DNA of 32,000 nt from NCBI GenBank assembly GCA_964640155.1, contig CAZXEQ010000001.1, positions 79,156 through 111,155 on the forward strand, in the 5' to 3' direction. This DNA is from an uncultured bacterium (GTDB taxonomy: Bacteria > Auribacterota > JACPWU01). Of the stretch, positions 1,153 to 32,000 are shown one piece after another. Position 1 is the first letter of the stretch, and each line of letters starts with the position of its first letter. A model generated the notes under the pieces. That model did no database searches, had not been told where the DNA came from, and saw nothing but the letters and a program-made list of their open reading frames with translations. The position numbers were made by a program, and so were the translations under genes.

Positions 1153-4100
1153 TCAAGCTGCAGCATTAAAAGACTCCGATCTTTCTACAATCACTTGTTT
1201 TCTTTGAACATTGGGCAACTCTCTCAGCGACTTTTGCCCTCTATCAATCTGTCTTTTCCTTGAACGTCGTATTTGTGTACCAACAGCTTCTTCTCTTTCT
1301 CCCAATTCACGAGCAATACGATTGACCCATCCTTGAAAAATCTCCTCTTCGAAAGGTTTTTCCTCTTCACTCATTTGATCGAGGCTCTCAGCAATTCTCA
1401 TAATCGCTAATTCTAATTTTCCTTCTCGGAAAAGTTTTTCCACTTCGGCTTCTAAAGTCACTGTTGCTAAATCCTGTTGCTGTTGCCTTTGTCTTAGTGC
1501 TACCAAGCCAAAAACAATGGTTAAAGCTGGAGGTAGAATCATTCTTCTTGGCGCACCGCTATCAGACACTGTAAGACGAATATCTGGCGCATTATAATAC
1601 CTGGTTCCGATTGAGTTATCTCCTGTAGAAGAAGCCTCTACGGCTCCTGGAACAGAAGGCAAAGCTAAAAGCCCTATCACTCTTTCATAAAGACTACCTG
1701 TCCATCGTCGGACCTCTAAGACTTCACCCCTCTCATCCCTAACATTTGGATGTAGAGAAATAGCATCTCTTAAGGCCACCAATGCTATTAAAAAATCTCT
1801 TCGAACAATCACCTGATTCCCTGATAACTGTACATCCTCTAAATCCAGACTGTCAGAGAAAACCAAGCGTCCCTCACGATAAAGGGTCAATATTTGAGTT
1901 TTTCTTTCAGGGGAAAGATAACGCCCCCAAAATTCTATTAAATAATGATCTACAACATCGATATGAGAAGGTTCTGAAGCCTGATACTCAGAACTAGAAA
2001 TATAAAAATCGCCGGCTCTCCAATGTGCAATTCGCTGCTGACGCGCAACATCAGCCACCCCTTGCAACCTCTCTCTTGTAATGATGTCTGATGACAATTG
2101 AATAAATCTTAAAATTTCATAAGGTTTTAAAGCCAAATAATTTGCAACTTGTACTCTTTGTTCTATTTGTTCATACGTTTCTTGGAATGTTGAGTTAGAT
2201 GGAAAAGTACATTGCCCAAACAAAAGCCTAATAGGCTCTAAAAGTACATTTAACTCTCTTTGCGTTCTGTCTCTAACCTTTTGTATTTGATCTGCAGGTA
2301 AGTCCTGTCCCAAATCCAAAAAGGTTCTCTCCTCTTCAATAACCTGTCTTGCAGTTTGAAGCAAAGCTGTAAAAACACGTTCAATCGGTCGATGACCCAA
2401 GACCTCTTGTTGACCACTATTTTGATCGAAAGGAGCTCTTTCGGAATAAATCCTTTGAAGATTCATTCTCGAAAAAGCTATTTCAGGAGTGATAAGCTCA
2501 CTTACATCTCCTTTCCCCCTAACAAAACTAGCTTCGGAAACAATCATTTCACTCAGAGCAATCATAATATCTGTTTCACCAATGCCCATTTGACGTAACG
2601 CTTGAAGATAATTTTCTGTATCAAAACCCTGAGCAGGAATAATCTCTAAAGCAATCGGCATAAGGATTGCTAGAAGCTCAGCTCTTGTTTCCAGAAAATC
2701 CTGCCAATGCAAAATGAGATAAATAGAAAACACCCGAAAAGCGTTTTCTTGACCCAAAATCTGACGGATTTCTTGAGGTGTTTTTTCTCCCAAATCTCCA
2801 AAAACTTGGTCAAAAACATAATTTCTAAAATGAAAAGAACCATACAAACTTGCAGAAACAAAAATTTGAAGCTTAAGGTTCACCGATAAACTTGGAAAAA
2901 TTTCTTGAATGATTCTTTCCAATCTTTCTCTTGTTGCTGCATCTAAAGAAAGGTTTAGAGCCTGCGATATTAATGAAATATAAAAAGCCTTTTCATTATC
3001 ACTAAGACTACCTCTTCGAATAGACACTTCTGCCTCCGTTAAGATTTGAGTAACAGCTTCTTGTGATGCAAACCCTCCTAATCCCATAGCTAGATTTAAA
3101 AGATTTTGAGCAGCTGAGCGATAATAACTATCGTGATAGCTCACGGGTGTATACGGAATATCTATATTGCAAAGTCGAACGGGATGATACCGACGTTGAT
3201 AACGCTGAAAAAGAGCTCTTATTTGTGTTAAATCTCCAGAGGCAATCACTCTGCGGGCATGAAACAGCTCAATATTACTCAAACCTGTCGAGATCTCACC
3301 GAATTCACGCATCACTGTCTGAGGGTCGTCAGAACGAGCAGCCCATATACCCGGCAAAGTTATTTGTCTTACAGGATGATTCTGTAAATATTCTAAAAAT
3401 CTTTCCCCCACTTCATAAAAATTGTCACTGGGGATAGCGGCTTGATGATATAGTCCAAACACTTTTAAAAGAAAATCCAATTCAGAAGAAGCCCCATGAT
3501 CCCTTAATTCCTGATCAATATTTCTAAAATCAGGGTCCATTGCTAAAATATCCTCAGCAATCATCACCGATAGAACTGGGATCAGCACGCTTTCAACAGC
3601 ATCAACTACTCCTGCCCTGTAAAAAAAATTTTGATAAAAAGCCAATGCCTCTATAATATTTTGAGGTCTTAGATTTCTGCGCTCTTCTCGAACGAGATCT
3701 ACCACAAAAGACCGTGCAGCTACTTTAGCTTCTTCTGAAATCGGAGCTCTATTTACCTCAAATAAAAAACTCTGAAAACGACTCATTTGAACTCTTAAAT
3801 TATCCCCTTGTCCAGAATCTGTTCGTCGAGACATAGACAGAAAAATCCTTCGAGTATCATCAAAATATCTCTGCCGTTTTTGAGGATCCGCCAAAAGCCT
3901 CATAGGTAACCGCATCAAATCACCTTCAAGACTATCCCTTCGCATCACTGCAAGAAGCCGCTCTTGAATAGGAATATCAGTTAATGGACCATTCACTTGT
4001 TGTTGAATCACTTGAACACGTGGCCTTCCCATCAAAGGGCGAACATGTTGATTCATAAATAAAACCCAAGGGTCGTTGGTCGTAACCACTCCATTCAATT

Positions 4101-7100
4101 GAAGATAATTGAGAAAACTTCCATTGAATCCAATAATGCTTTGTCGTGGTTCATCTGGTGTATATCCACGGTCTGGAGTGAAGGATGGGTTACGACGATG
4201 CCATTCCTGCGCAATCACTTCATTACTTCCCCAAATTAAAAGCCCTAAACCTTGTCGGAGTTGTTCTGCATGAGGTGAGGCTGGAACACGAGCAGGATCC
4301 GCAAAAACATAATACCAATCATCAGGATACTGAGCTTGCAATCGAATAAGTTCTTGAAAAAAATAGCGCTGCCGAGAAAAAAAATTTAAGAAGCTGCCCA
4401 TCATCCGAAGCTCCTCCGAAGTAAAAGAAGATAAATCTCCAAAATGAAGCGGAGCATAAATGTTATTTAAATATTCTGCCGTAATTATTGCTGGAGTAGG
4501 ATCATAATTACCTCCATACCCTCCTCTGGATCTCGCCCTAGCTACCTGTGCTTGATATTGAGCTTGAGGACTATCTTCTCTTCTCCAGCGATCTTCTATC
4601 CCCTCTAGTTGAATCCACAAAGTAGACCTTTGAACAGGTGTCAATCCTTGTGAAAATTGATCAAATGCCGTGTTTGCAATTTCTTGGTTTAAACCCCAGC
4701 GTCTGCTTTCTCGAATCAAATAAGCTCTAAACGCATCTCCATTTCCAACATCCACGACTTTTCCATCCGCAAGCTTTTGAGCTGCCATCAAAGCCACACG
4801 TCCAAACAAGTCATGAATCATTCTTTCATTTTCTTCTCCCAAAGCGCCAATATCAGTTAAAAGACCTAAAGCAACATCATTGACCATTTGAAACATATCC
4901 TCTATAAGTCGAAAATCAATGGTTCTATCTACATTTTCATAAGCTCCCACAGCTCTTGAAGCAATTTCCAGTTTCTGAGATATATAAATATCTGTTCTTC
5001 TCAACAAAGTCCTCAAAGAATAGATTTGCCTTAAATCTTCTGGATAATCTGAATCTGAATAAAGAGGGGCTTGGTTAGAAGATTCATTCGATTGCCCTGC
5101 TGTTCTATCTGGCCTGGCGGCTTGGTCTCTTTCGTGATGTTGTCGAATTACACTTTCCTGAAAAACTTGTAAGCGTCGATCTCCTTGTCGAACAAATGTG
5201 GTAGGATCCCTGTTCACCCATCCGCGCCCTCCTCTAGGATTCATGGTTTGACAAATAGCATGAAGCTCTGAAATATCAATCCAGCGACTGCTATTCACAT
5301 CAATTGCCCCATGAACAAGTCGGGCTGGAATTCCTACATATCTTAAAAGAAGCATTTCATACATCGCTAAAACAGCACAAGCAGCTTTGATCTTCTTCCT
5401 GCGCCTAAAAGATTCTTCTTCAAACCCATGATCCAACCAATGTTCAGGAGGAACTGCAAACATTCGTGCAGCATCTTCATCCAACCCATATTCAAATCGA
5501 TCTTGCATAATTTGCTCTACACCTGTGAGTCGAAGGTCATAATCGTCCAACATTCTCAAAGCATCGAGCCGAGCTCTTAAGGTCGGAGGAATGTTTCTTT
5601 CACTCTCAGGAAGTTGTGTATAGTGGGCTATAAATTCTGATGAAGGGGTAAAAGGTACCGGTTGAAACTCATCGAGATGATAAGAAACAATATTATATCC
5701 TACGGGAAGATGAAAACCTTGTAAACGCAAAGTAGCATCTCCGTAAGAATTTGGCACGAGATTAAATCCTTCTGTTCGACCATTGACACGAATACTTGAA
5801 GGGTCAACACGAGAATGAGATGTTCTAAAAAGGCTTATTTCTGAGCCCTGAAAATACATAGTCACTGTCACTCCCTCACCCATTCTTGTTTCAGATAAGG
5901 GAGCATCTGGGAAATCAAGTACTTCCTGAACAACTGCTCCATTAGAATGAACACTCGAATAAGTCCCCAAAGAATAAAATCCTCCGCCTCGACTCAATTG
6001 AGCCAACCAGACGCCTCTCTCACGCAAACGTCCATTTTCAAAAGCACTGTCCGGTTCTGACAATGTATTAGGTCTAAATTCTCTCATTCCAGAAAGCGTT
6101 TGAAGATAACGCGCCCCTCTTTCCACATTATGAAAAAATAAAGAAGCTCTTCTAGAAACTCCAGCCATCATCTCTAATCTTCTAAAACCTCTCACAAAAG
6201 AAGGAACCCAAAAAAGTGTTTGGGCTGGAACTGTTTCTACGGTTTGACGAAGACGAACGCTTGACTGAGCAACAGATGCAGCTTGATCTCTGATCACATG
6301 AACAATGGTTTCAGAATGAAGTCCAAAACTTGAAAATACGATATATAAAACAATCCCCCATCTTAATATCCTAAAAATAAGCCTTTCTTTTAAAGAAGTT
6401 AAAAAGCTAACCCAAGGTCTGGCTACAGTTGTTTTAGATTCTTTAATTTCAAATTTTTCTAAGATTGCTTTTTCTTCAGTCTGTACAGGAGGCGCTTTTA
6501 AGGTTTCCAATGTCTTTTGACTTTGATCTAACAGAACTTTGTGAATTTTGGTTTCAAGATCTTCTAATTCTCCAATAACATCTCTTGATCGGTAAGATTC
6601 TAATCTTTCAATTTTCTTCTTTCTTTGATTCATTTGTCCTACTTTTTCTTTCAATTGATCTAGCTCTTCTGCCAACCTTCTTTCCTCCAAAGCATCACGC
6701 TCAATTGAAAAAGAATTGCTTCTAATTTTTTCAAGTAGGTTTTTTTTCAGTTCTTCTGCGCTTCCTTCACCCTCAATTAATCCTTCTGCATTTTCTTCAA
6801 TTCCAATCAACCTTTGATATTTCTGATGTAATTGAACATTTTCTCTTTCCTTACGAGCAATATCCACCCGTATCTTTTCTAAATCCCCCTCTAGTTTTTT
6901 TTGCTTCAATAACAGGTCTTCGACTCTTGCCTCTCCGAATATATTTTGCAGCTCTTCTTTTAATCGAATTATTTCTCCTTCAAAACGCCAAGGAGGTGCA
7001 TCTCTTGGCGTTTGAGTCATGGTAACTTCTGAAGTAGGAAGCAGACTTTGAATATGTTCAGTCCTTCGATAGATTCGATCATTTCGAAGCGTTCCTTTCT

Positions 7101-10100
7101 CCTTCTCTCTCAAACGTAATTCCAGTACATCTGCGAGAAAAATTCCTGCTTCCTTTTGAGTTTCAGGATTTAAAGTTGGGAAAATCTCTACTAATTCTTG
7201 AGCAATTAAAATTAAAGGAACAACTTCAACCTCACCATTTTCATAAATACGCTGCATATCATATCCATTCACAACAACTCTTATGAGTGGAGATTCTTTT
7301 TGAGAATCAATAATTTTAAGTCCCTTGGCCAAAAGCTTTCTTAAACTAAACGTAAGAAGCGAATCCTCAACTTGTTTTGATTGAGTCTTTTCTTCAAATG
7401 CAATTCCATGTTCTTGAGGTCCCGTTCGAAGAAGAGCTATCAGAAACTCTAGAGTCTGTTCTTCCAAAGTTTCTCCCTGTACATCCTTTCGAGACAGGCC
7501 AAATGTTTTTTCTCCAGAAACGTTTTTGGGAAAAGCAAATTGAAGAAAATTTTTCAAATCAAGAGGAACGGTATAAATCTCATAAATAGAAGAGCTTTTT
7601 TTTCCTTCAGCAATATCATAAGCCTCTTGAATGGTTCTTTCCGCTTGATGATAGCGAGAACGCCCCTTAATAACATGCCGACTTCCTAGCGAAATAAATT
7701 CAAATACAACTCCGGGAAAATCATTTGTTATTCGAATATCTATAGATTCTATACCTGCAACACTGATCTGATAGTGGATCAAGAAATAAGCCAGACGCAA
7801 GGACTGTAAATATTGATCCAAAGCCTGAATCTTTTTGAACAGGTCATTTTTAGTCTTATCATTCGCGCTTATTGACAAATTCTGAAGTTTTTTTCGAATT
7901 ATTAAGATTTTTAAGATTTCAGAAGGATAATCAATATTCTGAGCAGTTAAACTTCTGGCCCCCTCTTTTAGAAAAATAGAATCAACACCTATTTCATCTA
8001 ATGAAATTTTTTCTTTCGTGGCACTTTTATACGAAATTAATAAATTCTCTGAAGAACTCTGTCCGTCTTCAGAATCATCATCTAAAACAACTCTTTCTCG
8101 AAGAAAAACAGCCTCAGTCGATTTTAGATTTGACGACTTGCCTCTGACAACTTGAGCTACCTGCCCCTTCTGATTTCGTTTCAAGAAAAAAATATTCTTT
8201 CCCTCCCATACATCTAAAGGATTTCGTGAAATCTTCGGACTGACAATCACAGCGGGGGAAAACAGATTATAGGAGGCTAAAAATGATACCAACTGTTCTT
8301 CTTGAGCTGTCAGCGCGCTTAAACTTTCAAAAGGATTTAAGGATATTTCTGTTTGATCCTCAGAAATAGGCACAGATAATGTTTTTTCCTCTTCTATTTC
8401 TAAAGCTCTTTGTCTTCTTAGATTTTTAAATTTTACAAAGAGAGTTTTTCCTGTTTTTTTAAGAGTTGACCCAACCCATTTAAAAATAACAAAAACATTA
8501 AATAGAACAAAGGGAGCAATCAATAAAGTTAAAAAAGGCAAACCTAAATAGATAGAAAGAAGAGAAGCAGCATTTAAAACAATATAAAAATCTACAGCAA
8601 AACCAACCATCTTTTGTACTTTTTTAGGCAATTTTCGATAAAGGGGTGTTAAAAAAAATTCAGAAGCAATTCCCAGAAGAACAAGGGTTAATGCAGCACT
8701 CATTGTAAAATGAGCTCCGATGAGGCAAATAAAAACAACAAAAGGAAGAACAAGATAATACAAAAGCGTTTGGCTAACTCTACCTAAAATATGAAAGGCT
8801 CGACGCAAAAATCCTTTTTTTACCTCTTCCTTCTCAGTCTTCTTAAAATACCACCGACCAAATTTGACAATACCTGACTCTTCACCCCAGCGTCTGGCCA
8901 CAGCTGCCACAACTAAACGCCCTGCTGTTTTCATATTTGGATTAAATCGATCCCATTGCAAGGTGCAGTTTTTATGTTTAGAAATGACTTCCACCAAAAT
9001 TCTTCCTTCTTTATCATCTAAATCTCTTAGTATATCCCTATGTTTCTTAAACCATCGATTGACGATTTGATGTACTGTTTTTTGATCGGCCTTACTTAAA
9101 ACATCGATCAATTCTTTAAGCAATGGCTTTAATATATGCCCTTCATCCAATTCCAACTGCTCATGAATTTCTCGCTCCATCGCACTCACTGGAGAAAGCA
9201 TTTTTTTGATAGGATCAGAACTCGGTCGTAGCAAAAGTCTATCTTTGGAGAACTCTTCCCCATGAATCTCATCCCATTGTGTTTTCATCACAAAGTCGTA
9301 ACGTTTAAATCCCAACTCCCCACGAATTTCAGGCGTACAAGCAATATAAGAAATCTTTTTCTTCTCCAAAATTTTCTGAATACCCTCGGTATGAAAACCT
9401 CCGGTGATCAACACAGTCACCGGTCCCCTGTCTCCAGTCTCCAGCAAATCACTATTTTGGGTTTTCTGACTAGGAACTCGCGACTGACGACTGGTGACCA
9501 TTAACGCTTTTTCAGCCATCACTTCATCACGTTTCAGAGCAAACTCATAAAATTTTAGAGCTTCTCTCATGCAATCATCAAATTGATGAATTATTTGAGA
9601 ATTCTCTAGATTTAAATCTTGTACATTATATTTTTGAGATAAAGCCTGCATCGTTATTGCTCTTGATTGCGTATTTTTAAATCCTTTTAATCCAGTTGTT
9701 TCTAACTCTCTTCGCGTCAACTCCAAACGAATTAATTTCTTAAAAATCTTCCATGTTTCATCAAAATCAGCAATGTCTTCTACTTTCTCCAATCTTGCCT
9801 GTTCATAAAGAAATCCTTGAACAAAAGATATTAATTCATTCCACAAAACATCAAAATCAAACTTCTTCTCTTTTTGGCTAATGCTAAGCCACGTTTGTAA
9901 TTGAGGATATTCCTTCTGGAATAAATCTTTTTGAACACTATTTTCTTTTTCATAATTCTGTTTTAATTGAGCCAAGTATTCATCTGCCTTAATATGACCT
10001 AATCGATATTCCAATGTTATTTTCACAATTTCTTTGAATGCATTAGGCGATAATCTTGTCTGAAGATCTTTGATAAGTTGATCTAATTGTGTTTGTGCCT

Positions 10101-10893
10101 CCTTAGAATCAAATGCATTGGTTTCCTGAAAAAAAGTCAGAAAATCTTTCAAACTCGAGGTTTTAGCTAAAAGATGGGGGTGAGATTTAAAAATAAATTC
10201 TAATTCTTTCACCCATTCTTGCCATTTCGGAGAGTTTGAGTGTAAAGATTTGGAAAACTGATCTATTCTTTTTAAATCACTTGAGTAAGCTTTGTCTTTC
10301 AAACTCTGAAGCCAAGCATCAATCGCTGACACACCTTCTTTTAAACTCTCTGCATATTTTCGACAAAGATGAAACGCTTTAAAATTTTCAGAATAAAGAT
10401 GGGGCTCCTCAACTCCATAAAGAGAAGTTTCGTTTTTAAGTCCCATCACAATCTTAGAAAACTCTGCTCCTGTAAGAAGCCCTTGCCTAAGAAATTTTCG
10501 TGCTACTTGCGTCCTCGCGTCTTTATCTGGGAAAATTTCATAAAGAAGAGTTTGTACGGGTCCAGATGCCCCCTCCACTAAAACCTGATCAAGTAAATTC
10601 TCACGGGCAAGCTGCTCTAATGTAATTGCAATCCTCTCCTGAGCCTGTGCCTGACAATGAATATCTCTGATAAGGACCCAAAGTACAGGCCCTTTCCCAT
10701 TAAAAACCTTATTGATTTTCATACCTCTCAAAGCAAGAGAATCAGGCGAAATCTCTGCTATTGGAACAATACGAATCTGGGCAGATGGAATTAGATCTGC
10801 TTTCGCATGGGAAAACGACTCAAGATTCAAAGAATCTAGACCGATGAAACACGAGAGGACTATGGCTATTAATTTGACAATGATTTTTCTCAA
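1153..10893 (-). CDS. giant (3,246 aa) multi-pass membrane protein with transglutaminase-like cysteine protease core, coiled coil and large unassigned regions
   Basis: Uninterrupted 9,741-nt ORF in an AT-rich background. TTG start at 10891-10893 (weak GAGA 5 nt upstream) gives a signal/anchor-like N-terminus, MRKIIVKLIAIVLSCFIGL...HAKA|DL. An in-frame transglutaminase-like motif is present (see sub-features). I checked residue numbering against the DNA at four codons. Confidence 0.85.
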   Translation of the reverse strand: MRKIIVKLIAIVLSCFIGLDSLNLESFSHAKADLIPSAQIRIVPIAEISPDSLALRGMKINKVFNGKGPVLWVLIRDIHCQAQAQERIAITLEQLARENLLDQVLVEGASGPVQTLLYEIFPDKDARTQVARKFLRQGLLTGAEFSKIVMGLKNETSLYGVEEPHLYSENFKAFHLCRKYAESLKEGVSAIDAWLQSLKDKAYSSDLKRIDQFSKSLHSNSPKWQEWVKELEFIFKSHPHLLAKTSSLKDFLTFFQETNAFDSKEAQTQLDQLIKDLQTRLSPNAFKEIVKITLEYRLGHIKADEYLAQLKQNYEKENSVQKDLFQKEYPQLQTWLSISQKEKKFDFDVLWNELISFVQGFLYEQARLEKVEDIADFDETWKIFKKLIRLELTRRELETTGLKGFKNTQSRAITMQALSQKYNVQDLNLENSQIIHQFDDCMREALKFYEFALKRDEVMAEKALMVTSRQSRVPSQKTQNSDLLETGDRGPVTVLITGGFHTEGIQKILEKKKISYIACTPEIRGELGFKRYDFVMKTQWDEIHGEEFSKDRLLLRPSSDPIKKMLSPVSAMEREIHEQLELDEGHILKPLLKELIDVLSKADQKTVHQIVNRWFKKHRDILRDLDDKEGRILVEVISKHKNCTLQWDRFNPNMKTAGRLVVAAVARRWGEESGIVKFGRWYFKKTEKEEVKKGFLRRAFHILGRVSQTLLYYLVLPFVVFICLIGAHFTMSAALTLVLLGIASEFFLTPLYRKLPKKVQKMVGFAVDFYIVLNAASLLSIYLGLPFLTLLIAPFVLFNVFVIFKWVGSTLKKTGKTLFVKFKNLRRQRALEIEEEKTLSVPISEDQTEISLNPFESLSALTAQEEQLVSFLASYNLFSPAVIVSPKISRNPLDVWEGKNIFFLKRNQKGQVAQVVRGKSSNLKSTEAVFLRERVVLDDDSEDGQSSSENLLISYKSATKEKISLDEIGVDSIFLKEGARSLTAQNIDYPSEILKILIIRKKLQNLSISANDKTKNDLFKKIQALDQYLQSLRLAYFLIHYQISVAGIESIDIRITNDFPGVVFEFISLGSRHVIKGRSRYHQAERTIQEAYDIAEGKKSSSIYEIYTVPLDLKNFLQFAFPKNVSGEKTFGLSRKDVQGETLEEQTLEFLIALLRTGPQEHGIAFEEKTQSKQVEDSLLTFSLRKLLAKGLKIIDSQKESPLIRVVVNGYDMQRIYENGEVEVVPLILIAQELVEIFPTLNPETQKEAGIFLADVLELRLREKEKGTLRNDRIYRRTEHIQSLLPTSEVTMTQTPRDAPPWRFEGEIIRLKEELQNIFGEARVEDLLLKQKKLEGDLEKIRVDIARKERENVQLHQKYQRLIGIEENAEGLIEGEGSAEELKKNLLEKIRSNSFSIERDALEERRLAEELDQLKEKVGQMNQRKKKIERLESYRSRDVIGELEDLETKIHKVLLDQSQKTLETLKAPPVQTEEKAILEKFEIKESKTTVARPWVSFLTSLKERLIFRILRWGIVLYIVFSSFGLHSETIVHVIRDQAASVAQSSVRLRQTVETVPAQTLFWVPSFVRGFRRLEMMAGVSRRASLFFHNVERGARYLQTLSGMREFRPNTLSEPDSAFENGRLRERGVWLAQLSRGGGFYSLGTYSSVHSNGAVVQEVLDFPDAPLSETRMGEGVTVTMYFQGSEISLFRTSHSRVDPSSIRVNGRTEGFNLVPNSYGDATLRLQGFHLPVGYNIVSYHLDEFQPVPFTPSSEFIAHYTQLPESERNIPPTLRARLDALRMLDDYDLRLTGVEQIMQDRFEYGLDEDAARMFAVPPEHWLDHGFEEESFRRRKKIKAACAVLAMYEMLLLRYVGIPARLVHGAIDVNSSRWIDISELHAICQTMNPRGGRGWVNRDPTTFVRQGDRRLQVFQESVIRQHHERDQAARPDRTAGQSNESSNQAPLYSDSDYPEDLRQIYSLRTLLRRTDIYISQKLEIASRAVGAYENVDRTIDFRLIEDMFQMVNDVALGLLTDIGALGEENERMIHDLFGRVALMAAQKLADGKVVDVGNGDAFRAYLIRESRRWGLNQEIANTAFDQFSQGLTPVQRSTLWIQLEGIEDRWRREDSPQAQYQAQVARARSRGGYGGNYDPTPAIITAEYLNNIYAPLHFGDLSSFTSEELRMMGSFLNFFSRQRYFFQELIRLQAQYPDDWYYVFADPARVPASPHAEQLRQGLGLLIWGSNEVIAQEWHRRNPSFTPDRGYTPDEPRQSIIGFNGSFLNYLQLNGVVTTNDPWVLFMNQHVRPLMGRPRVQVIQQQVNGPLTDIPIQERLLAVMRRDSLEGDLMRLPMRLLADPQKRQRYFDDTRRIFLSMSRRTDSGQGDNLRVQMSRFQSFLFEVNRAPISEEAKVAARSFVVDLVREERRNLRPQNIIEALAFYQNFFYRAGVVDAVESVLIPVLSVMIAEDILAMDPDFRNIDQELRDHGASSELDFLLKVFGLYHQAAIPSDNFYEVGERFLEYLQNHPVRQITLPGIWAARSDDPQTVMREFGEISTGLSNIELFHARRVIASGDLTQIRALFQRYQRRYHPVRLCNIDIPYTPVSYHDSYYRSAAQNLLNLAMGLGGFASQEAVTQILTEAEVSIRRGSLSDNEKAFYISLISQALNLSLDAATRERLERIIQEIFPSLSVNLKLQIFVSASLYGSFHFRNYVFDQVFGDLGEKTPQEIRQILGQENAFRVFSIYLILHWQDFLETRAELLAILMPIALEIIPAQGFDTENYLQALRQMGIGETDIMIALSEMIVSEASFVRGKGDVSELITPEIAFSRMNLQRIYSERAPFDQNSGQQEVLGHRPIERVFTALLQTARQVIEEERTFLDLGQDLPADQIQKVRDRTQRELNVLLEPIRLLFGQCTFPSNSTFQETYEQIEQRVQVANYLALKPYEILRFIQLSSDIITRERLQGVADVARQQRIAHWRAGDFYISSSEYQASEPSHIDVVDHYLIEFWGRYLSPERKTQILTLYREGRLVFSDSLDLEDVQLSGNQVIVRRDFLIALVALRDAISLHPNVRDERGEVLEVRRWTGSLYERVIGLLALPSVPGAVEASSTGDNSIGTRYYNAPDIRLTVSDSGAPRRMILPPALTIVFGLVALRQRQQQQDLATVTLEAEVEKLFREGKLELAIMRIAESLDQMSEEEKPFEEEIFQGWVNRIARELGEREEAVGTQIRRSRKRQIDRGQKSLRELPNVQRKQVIVERSESFNAAA
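1492..1548 (-). other. C-terminal transmembrane helix of giant protein (aa ~3116-3134), followed by a charged tail
   Basis: RRMILPPALTIVFGLVALRQRQQQQ, then an E/R/K-rich helical tail of ~110 aa. Confidence 0.6.
5194..5421 (-). other. transglutaminase-like core (Cys1839 / His1878 / Asp1896)
   Basis: KIKAACAVLAMYEMLLLRYVGIPARLVHGAIDV...ISELHAICQTMNPRGGRGWVNRDPT matches the classic pattern C-x-x-(F/L)A ... GIPAR-V-G ... H-A ... GW...DPT. Codons confirmed on the DNA: Cys 5377-5379, His 5260-5262, Asp 5206-5208. A beta-rich segment precedes it (aa ~1650-1750). Confidence 0.75.
6316..6387 (-). other. internal transmembrane helix (aa ~1503-1526) separating the Lys-rich and Arg-rich halves
   Basis: ERLIFRILRWGIVLYIVFSSFGLHS. 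Basic residues are concentrated on the N-terminal flank. Confidence 0.65.
6424..6996 (-). other. charged coiled-coil segment (aa ~1300-1490)
   Basis: Long E/K/L/Q-rich heptad-like sequence, for example LKEELQNIFGEARVEDLLLKQKKLEGDLEKIRVDIARKERENVQLHQKYQ...LDQLKEKVGQMNQRKKKIERLE. Confidence 0.6.
8470..8781 (-). other. cluster of about four transmembrane helices (aa ~705-808)
   Basis: Hydrophobic runs are LLYYLVLPFVVFICLIGAHF, MSAALTLVLLGIASEFFLTPLY, VGFAVDFYIVLNAASLLSIYLGL and PFLTLLIAPFVLFNVFVIFKWV. K/R-rich stretches flank the cluster on both sides. Confidence 0.7.
9334..10716 (-). other. possible Tiki/TraB/ChaN-superfamily-like domain with a large helical insert (aa ~60-520)
   Basis: Motif-level only. 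VLWVLIRDIHCQAQAQERIAITLEQL...DQVLVEGA (His79, Glu107) and VTVLITGGFHTEGIQKILEKK (His501) resemble the two His-containing motifs plus the acidic residue of that superfamily. The first motif lacks the usual Gly. Confidence 0.25.
10798..10893 (-). other. N-terminal signal peptide or signal anchor of giant protein (aa 1-32)
   Basis: Positive n-region (MRK), hydrophobic core IIVKLIAIVLSCFIGL, and an AKA-D AxA-like site. Confidence 0.6.
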
Positions 10894-16700: not shown

Positions 16701-19130
16701 TCAAAATTTAAATTTTTTCCTGACACCAAACATTTGTTCACTTTCATCCATTCTAAAAAGGAAATCCTGATTAGGCTGAAGTTCATATTCTAATTGAAAC
16801 TGCGCACCTGGAGAATGCTCATCCATAGAATCTTCATCTAAACTTCCACTGGCTTTCACACCCACGGCCATACGTTTATCAATTTTTTTCATCAATGTTA
16901 ATTCCTGTAAATCTTCATCCTGACGAAGCTCAAAACCTTTTAGGCCCATATGATGAGGATCCATATTAAATCTTACATGTTTAAATGGTTTTCTCCCTTT
17001 TAAATCAATCGAACCGGAAACAAGCCACTGACCAGGATCAGTGATCACCACAGAATTTTTAAGATCAACCGTTTTTCCAAACCCTGAAAGACTAAAAGAA
17101 GCCTCTTTAAATTTAAGATCGAAGAACTGTCCATGGGCAAAATCTACTTTTCCTTCCCAATGAGGATAATCCATAGCCCCTTTCAAAGAAATTTTACCAT
17201 TCATGACACCTTGGAGATAGGGAGCCTTGTGCCGGGGGAAAAAGACACCTAGTCGAGATAAATCTGCATTTAAAATAGTCCAAGTCAAATCCAAGGTGTT
17301 ATCTCTAAAACGATAATATCCTTCCAAAAAATATTCTTGTCCCAATCTCATATCTTTAAAATAAAACTCTTGTTGAGTTGAATCAAAAGAAAAGTCTCCT
17401 TGTCCATCCGGGAAAGAAACTTCATTGATTTTTAATTCAGTTAAAGCTAAGTGGCCTTCTAAAGAAAACTTATTTTCAAAAATTTGGAAGATCCCAATCA
17501 AATCTAAATGAGCATCTAGCACAAATGCCCCTAGTTTAAAATGTCGCAGATGAAACACCATATTCCATTTTCCATGAATTTGATGATCCCCTTCCTCTTT
17601 AAATGCAATTGTGCTTTGAAACAAAATACTTTTCTTCCACCGAAGTGATCCTGTGATTATCTTTTCAATACCATCTTTCCACCAAAACAAACCCTGAACT
17701 TTAGGCCTATATGCCCAAATTTTTAGAATGGATAAATTCTGCGTCAACGCAGTTCTAAAATTGATTTTATTATTTTTAAAATTCAACACTCCTCCGCTTT
17801 GAAGTAAAGACCTTCTTAAACTACCAAAAAACTCACTACTCCAATTAGAAACAAACTCAGCTTGTTTTACTCCACTAGAATTTTCAGATAAAATGGAAGA
17901 GCTTTTTAAGTTAAAAATAAGTTTTGGAAGTAATTGTAAAAAACCGTTTAAGCGGATTCGATCCATGAGAATCATTTCTTGTAAAAAAATCCCTTCTTTC
18001 ACAACAAGAGCATCTCCCTTTAAATTTAAAGGAAAAGACTGCTGATGAAGAAATAAATCTCCTTCTAAACCTTTCAAGGAAAGACCACCTCGATCCCATG
18101 AAATCTTTTTCGTTTTTAACACCCATTTCAATGAACTTAAAATGGAAGGGACTCGATCTGGAAAGCCTCTGAAAGTCCCCTTAAGAATAGGATTTTCGAG
18201 AGGTCCTTTAAGGTATGTATGGAAAACTCCGTCCTCGGCCTGGCACATCGCTTGAGCATTAATAAATCTGTCATTTTCTTTCTTTTTCAAAGAAGCACTT
18301 GCAATAACAATCGCTCCTTCTTCAATCCATTGCAAATGAGTCAGACGCCATTGCCCCTTACGAAATAAAATATTTAAATTGATGGAAGCTTCTTTTTGAG
18401 ATGGATAGATAACTTTGACATTCTCTAAATTGAAATGGGCTTCCTGAAGAACTTTATTTTTGAAAACGATTTTTCCCTCAACAGAACCGTCCAGAAATTT
18501 AAAACCAGAAATAACCCGATTGAGTTGTAACAAAGAAAAGTCTGTAATCACAAAACGTAATTCATCATCCTGTCGAGTCACGAAAATTTGATTGTGATGA
18601 CCTTTCATAGGAGTGCGCGCCATAATGCGCCAGCTCGTTCCTTTACCTTCAGGCAAGACTTCGAAAGACATTTGTTTAATGTACAACATGGCATTTCTCA
18701 AATCACTCGACAAAACTTTATTCCACAATAACCTTAAGGGATCATCAGAACCTCTAGAAAGATGGGGAGTGAATTTTAAAAGCTCAGAAAGATGTTTTAA
18801 ATGTACAAAAGTTGATTTTAAAAAAATAGGTTCGTAAAAATCTCTCTTAAAGAAATCCCCCAAACGATATTCTGTAGAAATCTCCTGAACCTTAAGAAAA
18901 TTAAAAAGAGAAGAGTGATTGGCTTTTAGTTCAACTTGTTTTAACTGTAAGCCTTCAATGAGCCCTCCCTCTAATTGATTAACATCAACATTCAAAGGAA
19001 GAATCTCAGATAATTTATACGAGAGAATGGTGCGTCCTAGACTTGTCCAAAGAGGAGCAAAAAAATGACTTTGAGTCGTCATTCCAATCGCAAAAGGGAT
19101 AAAAATATAGAAAAAATATCTCTTCTTCAC
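16701..19130 (-). CDS. large envelope protein (809 aa), putative AsmA/TamB-like
   Basis: A single N-terminal TM is followed by long beta-rich, repetitive amphipathic sequence of the kind seen in AsmA/TamB-family proteins. The C-terminus ends ...FGVRKKFKF (terminal aromatic). It is first in the apparent operon with mlaEFD. The functional call is tentative. GTG start with GGGGG RBS. Confidence 0.5.
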   Translation of the reverse strand: MKKRYFFYIFIPFAIGMTTQSHFFAPLWTSLGRTILSYKLSEILPLNVDVNQLEGGLIEGLQLKQVELKANHSSLFNFLKVQEISTEYRLGDFFKRDFYEPIFLKSTFVHLKHLSELLKFTPHLSRGSDDPLRLLWNKVLSSDLRNAMLYIKQMSFEVLPEGKGTSWRIMARTPMKGHHNQIFVTRQDDELRFVITDFSLLQLNRVISGFKFLDGSVEGKIVFKNKVLQEAHFNLENVKVIYPSQKEASINLNILFRKGQWRLTHLQWIEEGAIVIASASLKKKENDRFINAQAMCQAEDGVFHTYLKGPLENPILKGTFRGFPDRVPSILSSLKWVLKTKKISWDRGGLSLKGLEGDLFLHQQSFPLNLKGDALVVKEGIFLQEMILMDRIRLNGFLQLLPKLIFNLKSSSILSENSSGVKQAEFVSNWSSEFFGSLRRSLLQSGGVLNFKNNKINFRTALTQNLSILKIWAYRPKVQGLFWWKDGIEKIITGSLRWKKSILFQSTIAFKEEGDHQIHGKWNMVFHLRHFKLGAFVLDAHLDLIGIFQIFENKFSLEGHLALTELKINEVSFPDGQGDFSFDSTQQEFYFKDMRLGQEYFLEGYYRFRDNTLDLTWTILNADLSRLGVFFPRHKAPYLQGVMNGKISLKGAMDYPHWEGKVDFAHGQFFDLKFKEASFSLSGFGKTVDLKNSVVITDPGQWLVSGSIDLKGRKPFKHVRFNMDPHHMGLKGFELRQDEDLQELTLMKKIDKRMAVGVKASGSLDEDSMDEHSPGAQFQLEYELQPNQDFLFRMDESEQMFGVRKKFKF

Positions 19131-26438: not shown

Positions 26439-27872
26439 TTACGCTTCTGGTCTCATATGAGGGAAAAGAATCACTTCACGAATGGATTCAATACCCGTCA
26501 AAATCATGACCAAGCGATCAATTCCAATTCCCAAACCACCAGCGCAAGGCATGCCATATTCCAAGGCCCTCACAAAATCATGATCCGCTTCTTTGCCTGT
26601 GGCTTTGGCCTGTTCGTCAAAGCGTTTGGCCTGATCAATCGGGTCATTCAACTCTGAATAAGCATTAGCAACCTCTAGCCCTTGCATAAAAAGTTCAAAA
26701 CGCTCTGCACGACTGGAGTCCCCTTTTTTTGTTTTAGCCAAAAGACAAAGTTCTGTTGGATAATCAGTGATAAATGTCGGCTGAATTAATTTTTCCTGAA
26801 CCACTTTTTCAAAAATCTCATTCCATACTTCGATGCCAGACCAATGAGGATCTACAAAAAGACCCAACTTTTTTGCTTCAGCTGCAGGATCTTTCACATG
26901 AGATATATCAATCCCCGCATATTCACGAATGGATTCAAAATAGTCCAGTCTTCTCCAAGGCGACTGAAAATTTAAAACTTGCCCACCCCAACTTTGAACT
27001 TCTCTTTTCTTAAAAAGGTGATCGCATAAACTGCCAACCAGATTTTCAGTCAATTGCATCATATCCGTATAATCATCATAGGCTGAATAAACTTCAAGCA
27101 TGCTAAATTCAGGATTATGAAATCTTGAAAGCCCCTCATTCCTAAAGTTTCGATTCAGCTCGTAAACCTTTTCCAACCCACCCACCAAAAGCCTTTTCAA
27201 ATAAAGTTCAGGAGCAACTCTTAAATAAAGATCTATCCCCAGTGCTTCATGAAAAGTTTCAAAAGGTTTTGCAACAGCTCCCCCCGCAATGGCCTGCATC
27301 ATGGGAGTTTCAACTTCTTGAAATCCAAGACCATCCAAAAAAGAACGAATCTCTCGAATAATTCCAGAACGCGTTTGAAAAATTTTTCTTACCTCAGGAT
27401 TGGAAATCAAATCTACATAACGTTGACGATAGCGAATTTCAACATCTTTTAAGCCATGCCATTTTTCAGGTAAAGGGCGTAGGGATTTAGAAAGGAAGAC
27501 AAAATGCTTTGCTAAAATTGTAATTTCACCTGTTTTGGTTTTGAAAAGCTCTCCTTCCATCCCCAAAACATCTCCAATATCCCCTTTTTCAAACAAGGCG
27601 AACTGTTCTTCTCCAATAATATCTTTCTTAACATAAAATTGAATGCGTCCAGTTCTATCCTCAATATTTCCAAAAACAGCCTTGCCATGCCCTCTTAAGG
27701 CCATCACACGTCCTGCAATCTTTGCCGGCATAGCTTCCTGAAAAGATTCAATACAACCTTGCATGGTATGGGAACGAACAAATTTCCGACCGTAGGGCTC
27801 TAGCCCTTTTTCAAGAAGGAACTGAAGTTTTTCTTTTCTCTGCTTAATTAAATCATTATCTGAATCAGTCAT
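26439..27872 (-). CDS. lysS: lysine--tRNA ligase (class II)
   Basis: Canonical LysRS sequence starts at MTDSDNDLIKQRKEKL... (ATG 27870-27872). The 56 codons added upstream by the ORF track start at a TTG and read through a promoter-like region and a GC-rich element. Confidence 0.95.
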   Translation of the reverse strand: MTDSDNDLIKQRKEKLQFLLEKGLEPYGRKFVRSHTMQGCIESFQEAMPAKIAGRVMALRGHGKAVFGNIEDRTGRIQFYVKKDIIGEEQFALFEKGDIGDVLGMEGELFKTKTGEITILAKHFVFLSKSLRPLPEKWHGLKDVEIRYRQRYVDLISNPEVRKIFQTRSGIIREIRSFLDGLGFQEVETPMMQAIAGGAVAKPFETFHEALGIDLYLRVAPELYLKRLLVGGLEKVYELNRNFRNEGLSRFHNPEFSMLEVYSAYDDYTDMMQLTENLVGSLCDHLFKKREVQSWGGQVLNFQSPWRRLDYFESIREYAGIDISHVKDPAAEAKKLGLFVDPHWSGIEVWNEIFEKVVQEKLIQPTFITDYPTELCLLAKTKKGDSSRAERFELFMQGLEVANAYSELNDPIDQAKRFDEQAKATGKEADHDFVRALEYGMPCAGGLGIGIDRLVMILTGIESIREVILFPHMRPEA

Positions 27873-28006
27873 CTCTATTGCTCCAAAGAATTTACAAATC
27901 AGCTCATAATTAATATGCGAAAGATTAGTATAGGCAATACAGACTGTCAAGTAAAGCCGATCTGTATTTGAACGATCGCTGGCAAAAAGTGTGTTCTTTA
28001 CAATAC

Positions 28007-28090
28007 GGGTGACACTCGGCGGGAGCCCCGCCGCGCGCAATTTTTCATGAGCACGGTGGGGCTGACGAGTGGCAGGACCTGTTTCTTTTT
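28007..28090 (+). other. GC-rich structured element of unknown function in the lysS / TolC-like divergent region
   Basis: By my count 28007-28079 is ~two-thirds G+C, against AT-rich flanks. Hairpin CGGCGGG-agc-CCCGCCG (28017-28033) is followed by a T5 run. An alternative pairing joins GCCCCGCC (28025-28032) with GGTGGGGC (28055-28062). That pairing needs a G-U, so it works only on the plus-strand RNA. It is enclosed by CACTC/GAGTG (28013-17 / 28067-71). Confidence 0.25.
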
Positions 28091-30717: not shown

Positions 30718-30747
30718 TTGACAAAGGCTTCCCTCAAATGTTAGCCT
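30718..30747 (+). promoter_or_regulatory. candidate promoter of the riboswitch leader
   Basis: TTGACA (30718-30723), an 18-nt spacer ending in TGt, then TAGCCT (30742-30747), giving an extended -10 configuration. Confidence 0.4.
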
Positions 30748-30804
30748 TTAATCAGAAGTAATGAAGTAGCTAGAACCACTAGCTGGTACAACTGAATAAA
30801 CAGT

Positions 30805-30960
30805 ACCTTGAAAAAGGCAAACTGTTCGAAAGAGCAGGACGCAAAGCTTCAGGCCCTCAGAAAAGCCGTAGCTCGTGTGTCGTAAAGCGTATCTCATTGA
30901 GATACGAAGAGCGAAGTACGATTTACGATCTTTAATAGGGTAGCTGGGCTGCCAAAGGGT
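30805..30960 (+). promoter_or_regulatory. GEMM-I (c-di-GMP-I class) riboswitch aptamer
   Basis: 30816-30847 reads GGCAAA-CTGTTC-GAAA-GAGCAG-GACGCAAAGC. As I recall the V. cholerae Vc2 aptamer, it reads GGCAAA-CCAUUC-GAAA-GAGUGG-GACGCAAAGC. Junction and GNRA-loop residues are identical, and the two stem differences are compensatory. The 3' element AGGG-TAGC (30937-30944) parallels Vc2 ...GG-UAGC. In between is a long nested second helix: CCCT/AGGG, AAAG/CTTT, CGTA/TACG, TCGTA/TACGA, and CGTATCTC-att-GAGATACG at 30888-30906. Aptamer boundaries are approximate. Confidence 0.8.
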
Positions 30961-30976
30961 TAGGCAATACAAAAAC

Positions 30977-31027
30977 CCTGTTCTTCGAATGTGATTAAGC
31001 AATCATTTGAAGATCAGGTTTTTTATT
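30977..31027 (+). terminator. intrinsic terminator / expression platform of the riboswitch
   Basis: A ~17-bp imperfect stem (30977-30996 paired with 31001-31018, loop AAGC) is followed directly by TTTTTTATT (31019-31027). It ends 14 nt before the RBS GGAGGG (31041-31046) of the downstream gene. Confidence 0.7.
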
Positions 31028-31050
31028 GCTTACCCAAGCTGGAGGGTAAA

Positions 31051-32000
31051 ATGAAAACTCTTCTAAAAAGAAGTGAAGGTTACACGTTTTTAGAGATTCT
31101 CACCTCAGTCTCAATCATTATTATCATTATATCGCTTCTTGCCTCAGCTATTACAGCAGCTCGGGAAAAGGGCTTGCAAGCTAAGTGTATCAACAATCAA
31201 AAGAATCTTGCAGCAGCTCTCATTATGTACGCGCAAGATTATGAAAGCTTCCCTACTCAATTGGCTAAAATAGATCATTTTCGCCAAGATTTAACTTCTT
31301 CCAATGAAGGTTACGCTTATGCAAGCAATATGCAGTCTTATTATGCCCATGAGATTGATGTAACGCGATGTCCTAAAGTAAGTGGATCTATCACGGATAC
31401 AAACCCTACTTACTCTTATGGAATCAATACTCTCGTAGAAGGACGTAATTTAAGCGATATTGTGGACCCATCCAATACCATTGTGGTAACGGATAGTGCT
31501 AATAAAGACGCTGTAATGACAAAAGATGATGTGTCTTTCCGACATTTAGGTGGAGCCATCGCAGGTTTTGCAGATGGCCACGTAGAATGGGTGCGCTTTA
31601 ATCAAATAGATGAAACAGGAGCTGGATCATCAGGAACATCTGGATCCTCGGACGGAACAGACGATGGAACTATTCTGCCTGGAGGTGGTGTTTCTTTTGA
31701 CCCAGAAGGTAATCCCGATCCCCCATCTGATGATGGTTCTGGATCCGGTGGTGGATCAGGCTCTGACAATGATGACGATGGTTCTGGATCTGGCAGTGGA
31801 TCAGGCTCTGATGATGATGACGATGGTTCTGGATCCGGCAGTGGATCAGGCTCTGACAATGACGATGATGGTTCTGGATCCGGCAGTGGATCAGGCTCTG
31901 ATGATGACGACGATGGTTCTGGATCTGGCAGTGGATCAGGCTCTGACAATGACGATGATGGTTCTGGATCTGGCAGTGGATCAGGCTCTGATGATGACGA
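31051..32000 (+). CDS. prepilin-type N-terminal cleavage/methylation domain protein with H-X9-DG motif and acidic Gly/Ser/Asp repeat tail (3' end outside window)
   Basis: Absent from the ORF track because no stop falls in the window. RBS GGAGGG, then ATG at 31051. The N-terminus MKTLLKRSEG|YTFLEILTSVSIIIIIISLL has the G|xxxxE pilin leader and hydrophobic helix. FRHLGGAIAGFADGHVEW gives H-X9-DG. From ~aa 229 the protein becomes (GS)5-D(D/N)DDD repeats. Confidence 0.85.
   Translation, partial: MKTLLKRSEGYTFLEILTSVSIIIIIISLLASAITAAREKGLQAKCINNQKNLAAALIMYAQDYESFPTQLAKIDHFRQDLTSSNEGYAYASNMQSYYAHEIDVTRCPKVSGSITDTNPTYSYGINTLVEGRNLSDIVDPSNTIVVTDSANKDAVMTKDDVSFRHLGGAIAGFADGHVEWVRFNQIDETGAGSSGTSGSSDGTDDGTILPGGGVSFDPEGNPDPPSDDGSGSGGGSGSDNDDDGSGSGSGSGSDDDDDGSGSGSGSGSDNDDDGSGSGSGSGSDDDDDGSGSGSGSGSDNDDDGSGSGSGSGSDDD
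31735..32000 (+). repeat. 45-nt in-frame tandem repeat, at least 5.9 copies, continuing beyond the window
   Basis: Units start at 31735, 31780, 31825, 31870, 31915 and 31960. The consensus is GGTTCTGGATCYGGCAGTGGATCAGGCTCTGAYRATGAYGAYGAT. DNDDD and DDDDD variants alternate, giving a 90-nt super-period. Confidence 0.95.

Follow-up and report, generated by a model that had tools for sequence, protein, structure and literature searches.

A probable class I cyclic di-GMP riboswitch with an extended P3 helix in the leader of a pilin-like gene from an uncultured Auribacterota bacterium

The locus described here lies in a 32,000-nucleotide (nt) stretch of DNA, hereafter the window, from an uncultured bacterium of the Auribacterota lineage (GenBank assembly GCA_964640155.1, contig CAZXEQ010000001.1, positions 79,156 to 111,155 of the forward strand). 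On the plus strand, a conserved 5' leader at 30742-31050 carries an RNA aptamer (30806-30958) followed by an expression platform, and includes, close to its end, a Shine-Dalgarno sequence, GGAGGG (31041-31046). After a gap of 4 nt comes the ATG at 31051, which opens a pilin-like gene that runs off the window at 32000. An original prediction, made from the sequence alone, had placed a GEMM-I riboswitch here beneath a spurious open reading frame (ORF). Our analysis indicates that the element is very probably a class I cyclic di-GMP (c-di-GMP) riboswitch (GEMM-I) in the 5' leader of the pilin-like gene, most likely acting as a transcriptional OFF switch. It adds one more example to an RNA class that is already well known and does not represent a new kind. 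The identity of the aptamer, the nucleotides of its ligand site, its conservation and its linkage to the gene are established here.

The predicted class, strand and extent were confirmed with two covariance models. The original prediction had proposed a cmscan as a check, and a scan of the whole 32 kb at Rfam gathering thresholds returned a single riboswitch, a significant plus-strand match at 30807-30957. The top family was RF03167 (c-di-GMP-I-GGC; 66 bits against a cut-off of 59, E 1.1e-13), matched over its full length (model positions 1-80 of 80), and a second family of clan CL00126, presumably RF01051 (cut-off 35), likewise scored above its own cut-off. The second model, R1, was built from 27 normal-length c-di-GMP-I aptamers at other loci, excluding the window and its two closest relatives; its training set includes aptamers called RF01051, and all of its members carry A at the position equivalent to A47 of the Vibrio cholerae aptamer Vc2. 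R1 found 30807-30957 full-length with 67.8 bits (E ~5e-15). The 32-nt core GGCAAACTGTTCGAAAGAGCAGGACGCAAAGC from which the element had been recognized is present at 30816-30847, and the GGTAGC 3' element at 30939-30944. The window holds a single match to a degenerate pattern of the core, GCAWACN5GAAAN5GGACGCAAAG, even when 3 mismatches are tolerated, and 100 shuffles gave none.

Comparative evidence for the fold came from an alignment of 140 related aptamers (A5). MAFFT misplaced the 3' strand of the third helix when long and short aptamers were mixed, so pairing-based detection and model-based alignment were used instead. Aligned to R1, a procedure that favours the structure somewhat, A5 had 95.2% of its cells paired and both-side changes in 19 of the 22 pairs; these values were reached by 0 of 500 shuffles, and slid controls were all far lower.

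The aptamer forms a canonical three-helix junction. The 5' strand of P1, CCUUG (30806-30810), pairs with the 3' strand CAAAGG (30953-30958), seen in both the Rfam alignment and folding, through GC, UA, UA, CG and CG pairs that leave A30956 bulged; the Rfam alignment pairs model positions 1-80, 3-77 and 4-76. J1/2, AAAAAG (30811-30816), ends in G30816, the equivalent of Vc2 G20 (Rfam model position 10), which is G in 138 of the 140 aptamers (column 10 of A5). The P2 hairpin (30817-30842), found by Rfam and R1 alike, consists of 2-bp and 6-bp stems separated by an AAA/GAC internal loop and closed by a GAAA tetraloop (30828-30831), and all six pairs of the longer stem show both-side changes across the 140 aptamers. 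J2/3, AA (30843-30844), begins with A30843, the A47 equivalent (model position 37), and belongs to the AAA linker (30843-30845) between P2 and the next hairpin. The core of that hairpin, P3, is built from the 5' strand AGCUUCAGGCCC (30845-30856) and the 3' strand GGUAGCUGGGCU (from 30938/30939 to 30950), which carries an AG bulge; 10 of 10 model pairs are standard in the window and 9 of 10 covary in A5. The stretch CTTCAGG, which had been called unplaceable, turns out to be the ordinary 5' strand of P3, pairing with 30939-30950, and not a structural anomaly. J3/1, GC (30951-30952), supplies C30952, the equivalent of Vc2 C92 (model position 75); the corresponding A5 column, 221, has C in 128 of the 140 aptamers. 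In Vc2 the residues contacting c-di-GMP are G20, A47 and C92 (PMC4744006). By the Rfam alignment and A5, the window thus has the canonical c-di-GMP set in G30816, A30843 and C30952. The GAC and AG elements are also present in its row of A5: C30840 of the GAC loop and G30943 of the AG bulge are equivalent to C44 and G83, so that the nucleotides of this inter-helical contact can be read in the window, their pairing itself being predicted.

The original prediction had remarked on an unusually long second helix, and this was correct. The tip of P3 (30856-30938) places 83 nt between the core strands, against a mode of 17-30 nt in the 140 related aptamers. Folding predicts that these bases form a rod without branches, interrupted by a 4x4 internal loop rich in purines (AAAG/AAGA) and capped by a hairpin of 8 perfectly matched bp, CGUAUCUC-AUU-GAGAUACG. 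The canonical 11-nt receptor CCUAAG...UAUGG is absent from P3, where CCCUCAGAAAAG...CUUUAAUAGGG is found instead; the usual short stem at the distal end is missing too, a continuous rod standing in its place. The suggestion that this might be a structural variant held only in part: the long tip is real, but tips of 59-103 nt are known in other aptamers accepted by RF01051. In the GEMM description the receptor is absent from about half of the RNAs, and the hairpin was originally described with variable-length stems (PMC1950547); the receptor is therefore optional in the family and its absence does not exclude membership. The 83-nt insert has no second copy in the window or in 190 fetched loci and is not a repeated element. 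No other Rfam family matched within it on the plus strand up to E = 10; rows for mir-1303 and mir-4782 in the Rfam scan were chance matches to the terminator hairpin. A K-turn in the purine-rich loops of such inserts was considered and dismissed by eye, as the strands misfit the consensus.

The gene downstream of the leader was likewise as anticipated, and "surface or pilus-type protein" is a fair description of what it is predicted to encode. Its product matches Pfam DUF1559 (PF07596; 26.2 bits against a cut-off of 23.3), and its N-terminus, MKTLLKRSEG|YTFLE, is prepilin-like, with G10 at -1, E15 at +5 and a hydrophobic helix. The translation contains an H-X9-DG motif (H165...D175-G176), and a profile search from the protein reaches entries named "prepilin-type processing-associated H-X9-DG protein". 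A GspG match was partial and below its cut-off, and PF07963 (N_methyl) was not detected in the window protein. From ~31732 the gene contains a near-perfect 45/90-nt tandem repeat encoding acidic Gly/Ser/Asp units, DDDDGSGSGSGSGS / DNDDDGSGSGSGSGS, which continues beyond the end of the window. A minus-strand 115-aa ORF at 31602-31949 is the mirror image of this repeat and probably spurious. The syntenic orthologue in a related genome (L006) is 812 aa long and has long acidic and Ser-rich low-complexity regions.

Close homologues, sought with the N-terminal 190 aa of the regulated protein, were few. They came from a Candidatus (Ca.) Auribacterota metagenome-assembled genome (MAG; L005, 91% protein identity), a Logan contig (L192, 59%), a "Chlamydiae bacterium" groundwater MAG (L006, 57%), a "Chlamydiae bacterium" MAG (L191, 55%), an ENA contig (L195, 42%), a Chlamydiota-labelled MAG (L002, 41%) and a further ENA contig (L003, 39%). 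In all seven, a c-di-GMP-I aptamer lies in the leader of the homologous gene. The P3 tip measures 83 nt in L005, 73 in L192, 96 in L006, 58 in L191 and 109 in L195; L003 has a normal-length aptamer of 83 nt in all, and L002 has a composite aptamer before the homologue and tips of 16-17 nt in three others. By contrast, no such riboswitch was present in the surroundings (~0.9 Mb in total) of 64 distant DUF1559 genes, which came from Verrucomicrobiota, Planctomycetota and other phyla. Compared with L005, the leader as a whole is 97.4% identical: the aptamer core reaches 100%, the expression platform 98.9% and the P3 rod 91.4%, against 87.6% for the coding region over its first 570 nt and 75% for the intergenic DNA just upstream. 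Since the leader is conserved well above its flanks, it is under strong purifying selection, with the rod as its least constrained part.

We infer ligand binding and switch direction from the sequence and from folding models. An intrinsic terminator occupies 30977-31027, comprising an imperfect 14-bp stem (30977-30991 with 31004-31018), a 12-nt loop and the U-run UUUUUUAUU (31019-31027); a simple terminator scan misses it because the loop exceeds 8 nt. The same layout is found in L002, L003, L006 and L191. Folding also predicts a 6-bp antiterminator (30956-30979) between AGGGUU (30956-30961) and AACCCU (30974-30979), which shares A30956-G30958 with P1 and C30977-U30979 with the terminator base. 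It is the minimum-energy fold of the nascent transcript (-6.5 kcal/mol) until the terminator 3' strand appears; when the aptamer pairs were enforced, the antiterminator was lost and the full terminator formed. In the proposed mechanism, P1 would be weak without ligand, and its 3' strand together with the next three bases would pair with AACCCU, so that the antiterminator would occupy the terminator base, part the upper stem from the U-run and allow RNA polymerase to read through. Binding of c-di-GMP would lock the junction and P1, so that half of the antiterminator is no longer available; the terminator would then form in full (30977-31018 plus the U-run) and transcription would end before the ATG. 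Because the antiterminator shares bases with both the P1 3' strand and the terminator, c-di-GMP is predicted to switch the gene off, a direction that we consider probable provided that the aptamer is functional. The relatives give a mixed picture that mostly favours this logic: in L002b and L002c the antiterminator analogue is stronger (-11.9 kcal/mol) and takes up all of the P1 strand GCCAAAG, and L006 fits more weakly. The functional class I switches of Clostridioides difficile are OFF switches of the termination type, and direction needs a case-by-case test (PMC6366702).

Several observations weigh against a c-di-GMP-responsive OFF switch. First, plain minimum-energy folding without constraints did not recover the native P1 and P3, and the forced native fold lay ~4 kcal/mol above the minimum, which is usual for aptamers that depend on ligand or tertiary contacts. 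Second, without the canonical tetraloop receptor, affinity could differ from that of Vc2. Third, a 6-bp antiterminator faces a terminator of ~-18 to -21 kcal/mol, and read-through of the unbound RNA may be inefficient. Fourth, the logic is not uniform among relatives, the alternative hairpin of L191 competing with P1 and not with the terminator. Fifth, no GGDEF, EAL or HD-GYP genes were seen in the 32-kb window. Lastly, class I switches elsewhere act as ON switches or on translation (PMC6366702).

This last point leads to the alternative that the aptamer is genuine and c-di-GMP turns the gene ON, or acts mainly on translation or mRNA stability instead of termination, which we regard as unlikely though by no means negligible. 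In Bacillus thuringiensis class I riboswitches act as ON switches, and in V. cholerae they work without termination control (PMC6366702). High c-di-GMP usually favours adhesion factors, so an induced pilin-like adhesin might be expected. In the read-through RNA of the window, 30957-30969 can pair with 31025-31036 into an ~80-nt hairpin beside the Shine-Dalgarno sequence, and extra pairings in L002b, L002c and L191 could mask the Shine-Dalgarno sequence there. However, the terminator does not overlap the aptamer, so that the ligand cannot directly prevent its formation, and the terminator's sole competitor has bases in common with the 3' strand of P1, the arrangement of an OFF switch. Moreover, none of the folds predicted for the window leader pairs the Shine-Dalgarno sequence. 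The 30957-30969/31025-31036 pairing, which extends the terminator hairpin, may provide a further level of control, acting on translation. In L002b and L002c it is instead the U-run plus GCCUC that is complementary to the Shine-Dalgarno region.

A very unlikely alternative is that the element is a decaying, non-functional remnant, inactivated by the P3 insertion and loss of the receptor. The canonical 11-nt receptor is indeed missing, and the P3 tip evolves faster than any other part of the leader (91.4% identity, against 100% for the core). Degenerate copies occur in relatives, one truncated (L192 1294-1340) and one composite (L002 8774-8901), and some C. difficile c-di-GMP riboswitches are non-functional (PMC6366702). 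Against decay, the core is perfectly and the expression platform nearly perfectly conserved relative to L005 while the flanks diverge by 12-25%, and every ligand-site and junction nucleotide is intact. The receptor is also naturally missing from about half of the GEMM RNAs (PMC1950547). In addition, long tips persist in six leaders of the pilin-like gene family (the window and five relatives, 58-109 nt), and their rods differ in sequence even where the core is identical (window and L192), yet all stay self-complementary.

The opposite view of the rod, as a selected module of pilin-leader c-di-GMP-I riboswitches and not neutral padding, seems doubtful to us. Such a receptor-less rod could serve as a substitute docking surface for the P2 tetraloop, as a folding timer, or as a protein or RNA contact. 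In its favour, two lineages apparently unrelated by insert sequence both pair a long P3 with a pilin-like gene. Among the metagenome aptamers listed, roughly a fifth have P3 tips of 59-103 nt, and where a downstream ORF was called, the gene was pilin-like for 16 of 19 long-tip and 7 of 73 short-tip aptamers; the long-tip ones form one sequence family, and the counts are not phylogenetically independent. Weighing against selection, there are effectively only two lineages, and within the window's clade no part of the aptamer is less conserved than the tip.

The long-tip metagenome family may merit a closer look. Its members (L122, L140, L132, L169, L173, L090, L149 and others), with the 59-103-nt tips just mentioned, are often tandem c-di-GMP-I aptamers, share the insert GUCAUUGCGAG-hairpin-CGAAGCAAUCUCAUAC and lie almost exclusively upstream of classical type IV pilin genes (MYSFRKSKKGFTLIELMVVVAIIG...). 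These receptor-keeping aptamers are called RF01051 by Rfam, with a 68-nt insertion.

The original prediction had left open whether the ligand is c-di-GMP or 3'3'-cyclic GMP-AMP (cGAMP). As the window has G, not A, at the equivalent of Vc2 position 20, the predicted ligand is c-di-GMP. That the element instead senses 3'3'-cGAMP in the manner of GEMM-Ib is highly improbable: the fold is identical to that of GEMM-I, and the A found at the G20 position of a paralogous aptamer at L002 6745-6829 indicates that specificity variants may exist in the lineage, but the window carries G30816, the change associated with cGAMP binding is G20A (PMC7288161), and 138 of the 140 related aptamers have G there. 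The L002 aptamer (CUAGCAAAC) merits separate mention, as its A is the GEMM-Ib signature and the only such case among the 140 aligned aptamers; it precedes a 335-aa pilin-like gene in this Chlamydiota-labelled MAG.

The top Rfam family raises one further reading, to which we give next to no credence: that the element is a true c-di-GMP-I-GGC member with an altered site, implying a ligand other than c-di-GMP. RF03167 was the top family for the window and also for L005 (66.5 bits) and L006 (59.4). We take "GGC" to denote the identities at positions 20, 47 and 92, reportedly the meaning given by Weinberg et al. 2017 in PNAS; the RF03167 consensus, in which model position 10 is G, 37 is G and 75 is C, agrees with it. 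This consensus, GACGCGAAG, has a conserved G at model position 37, whereas the window, L005 and L006 all have A at this A47 position (GACGCAAAG). The normal-length aptamer L002a (L002 4994-5077) also has A47 and also scores best on RF03167; the label is therefore not discriminating. RF03167 has no receptor or distal-stem positions in P3 and so tolerates the unusual P3 of the window better, and R1, built from A47 aptamers only, scores the window at 67.8 bits. Because L002a is best on RF03167 and the receptor-keeping long-P3 aptamers are called RF01051, RF03167 probably wins only through a model that includes P1 and omits the P3 receptor and distal-stem positions. With "GGC" understood as above, the window is not a GGC variant, and the Rfam label should not be taken literally. 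The variant c-di-GMP-I-GGC is not mentioned in the "224 RNAs" paper (NAR 2017).

The 84-aa antisense ORF (30748-31002, minus strand, TTG start), which runs opposite the aptamer and terminator, is spurious, as had been supposed: in L005 a pair of compensating indels shifts its frame over a patch, and in L006 each of the three antisense frames is interrupted by stops. Upstream of the aptamer, a TTGACA hexamer at 30718-30723, read from the sequence, is a candidate -35 element of an uncertain promoter. L005 has the identical hexamer, followed by a spacer that differs, and a scan for consensus promoters upstream of the aptamer found no site, with no good -10 for TTGACA. The conserved leader also contains two small hairpins 5' of P1. 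One, AGCUAG-AACCA-CUAGCU, lies at 30768-30784; the other, GGUAC...GUACC (30785-30807), likewise read from the sequence, sits directly before P1, and its 3' strand runs into the 5' strand of P1. At the corresponding site L006 forms a comparable hairpin, CCUGU-AGAAG-ACAGG. The leader motif of the window (ACUGAAUAA.ACAG.UACCUUG) also precedes the start of a third aptamer at L192:1515-1541.

Other aptamers of the relatives showed unusual arrangements. Within a 10.7-kb contig, L002:4994-9950 holds five c-di-GMP-I aptamers (a tandem pair, a single copy and a composite) before three paralogous pilin-like genes, an apparent duplication of the riboswitch-plus-gene cassette. The composite at L002:8774-8901, upstream of the closest L002 homologue (P0002), has two serial P2-like GAAA hairpins and an inserted hairpin; Rfam (51 bits) and R1 (40 bits) align it differently, and it may be degenerate or a new arrangement. 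At L192:1294-1340, downstream of a window-like riboswitch and gene, is a truncated pseudo-aptamer with P1 and P2 and no P3.

The neighbouring genes are chromosomal housekeeping genes, including those for endonuclease V, TusA, a TolC-like protein, LysRS, LolCDE-/MacB-like proteins, McsA/McsB/ClpC, Mla, RadA and IspDF. The closest labelled relative is a Ca. Auribacterota MAG, and Auribacterota is a phylum of the Planctomycetes-Verrucomicrobia-Chlamydiae (PVC) group. LysRS relatives with 72-74% identity are labelled Chlamydiae or Chlamydiota, and the named Auribacterota genera reach 57-60%. The listed LysRS ORF (26439-28040, minus strand) gives 533 aa from its TTG, whereas the identical database protein has 477 aa; translation probably begins 56 codons after that TTG. 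Two other minus-strand ORFs were largely featureless, one of 3246 aa (1153-10893) with only a sub-threshold transglutaminase-core match, and one of 809 aa (16701-19130) with no Pfam or NCBIfam match. The original prediction had also held that the organism uses cyclic-dinucleotide signalling. Given the strong purifying selection on the aptamer, this is a reasonable inference from the sequence. A genome study of Auribacterota noted type IV pili and mentioned neither c-di-GMP nor riboswitches (PMC9324843).

These results add a well-supported predicted c-di-GMP-responsive gene to a barely studied PVC lineage, found under both Ca. Auribacterota and "Chlamydiae" labels. They tie the abundant, functionally obscure DUF1559/H-X9-DG pseudopilin-like proteins to second-messenger control, a link through which the timing of their production can be tested. 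In annotation terms, one spurious 84-aa ORF is removed, and the Rfam "GGC variant" label is seen to fall on aptamers with a canonical binding site. For RNA biology this is an ordinary class I riboswitch whose sole unusual trait is its long, receptor-less P3.

Among known systems, the element resembles Vc2 (RF01051), with which it shares the three-helix junction, the 2-bp and 6-bp stems of P2, the AAA/GAC loop, the GAAA tetraloop, the AAA between P2 and P3, the AG bulge of P3 and the equivalents of G20, A47 and C92. It differs in its P3 tip, 83 nt instead of ~20, with the receptor and short distal stem replaced by a continuous rod, and in its host, an uncultured PVC-group lineage. The GEMM description already gave P2 as 2-bp and 6-bp stems with a 3-nt internal loop, a GNRA tetraloop and an AAA linker, and the same 2007 paper (PMC1950547) covered pili genes under GEMM control, copies in tandem, terminators and a P3 of variable length; the RF01051 class as a whole shares with the window its location in 5' untranslated regions and a link to pili, motility or surface genes. 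RF03167 has in common with the window the 5' AAAGGC junction, the G before the C92 position and P1, and differs in that the window has A at the A47 position. The Geobacter GEMM-Ib riboswitches for 3'3'-cGAMP have the same fold and belong to the same Rfam family, with A at position 20 where the window has G. Long-P3 metagenome aptamers (e.g. L122, L140, L132) resemble the window in their long tip and downstream pilin gene, but keep the CUAA...AUG receptor, have their own conserved insert and are often tandem, and their pilins are short and classical type IV whereas the window gene is of the DUF1559 type. In C. difficile, Cd1 (Cdi-1-3, flgB operon) likewise consists of a class I aptamer followed by an intrinsic terminator, and c-di-GMP favours termination (OFF; PMC6366702), the direction predicted for the window element; Cd1 is experimentally validated and controls flagella, whereas the window element is known from sequence and is predicted to control a pilin-like protein. 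The C. difficile riboswitch Cdi-2-4 (pilA1) is also a c-di-GMP riboswitch and controls a type IV pilin gene through termination, but it belongs to class II, with an unrelated fold, and is an ON switch.

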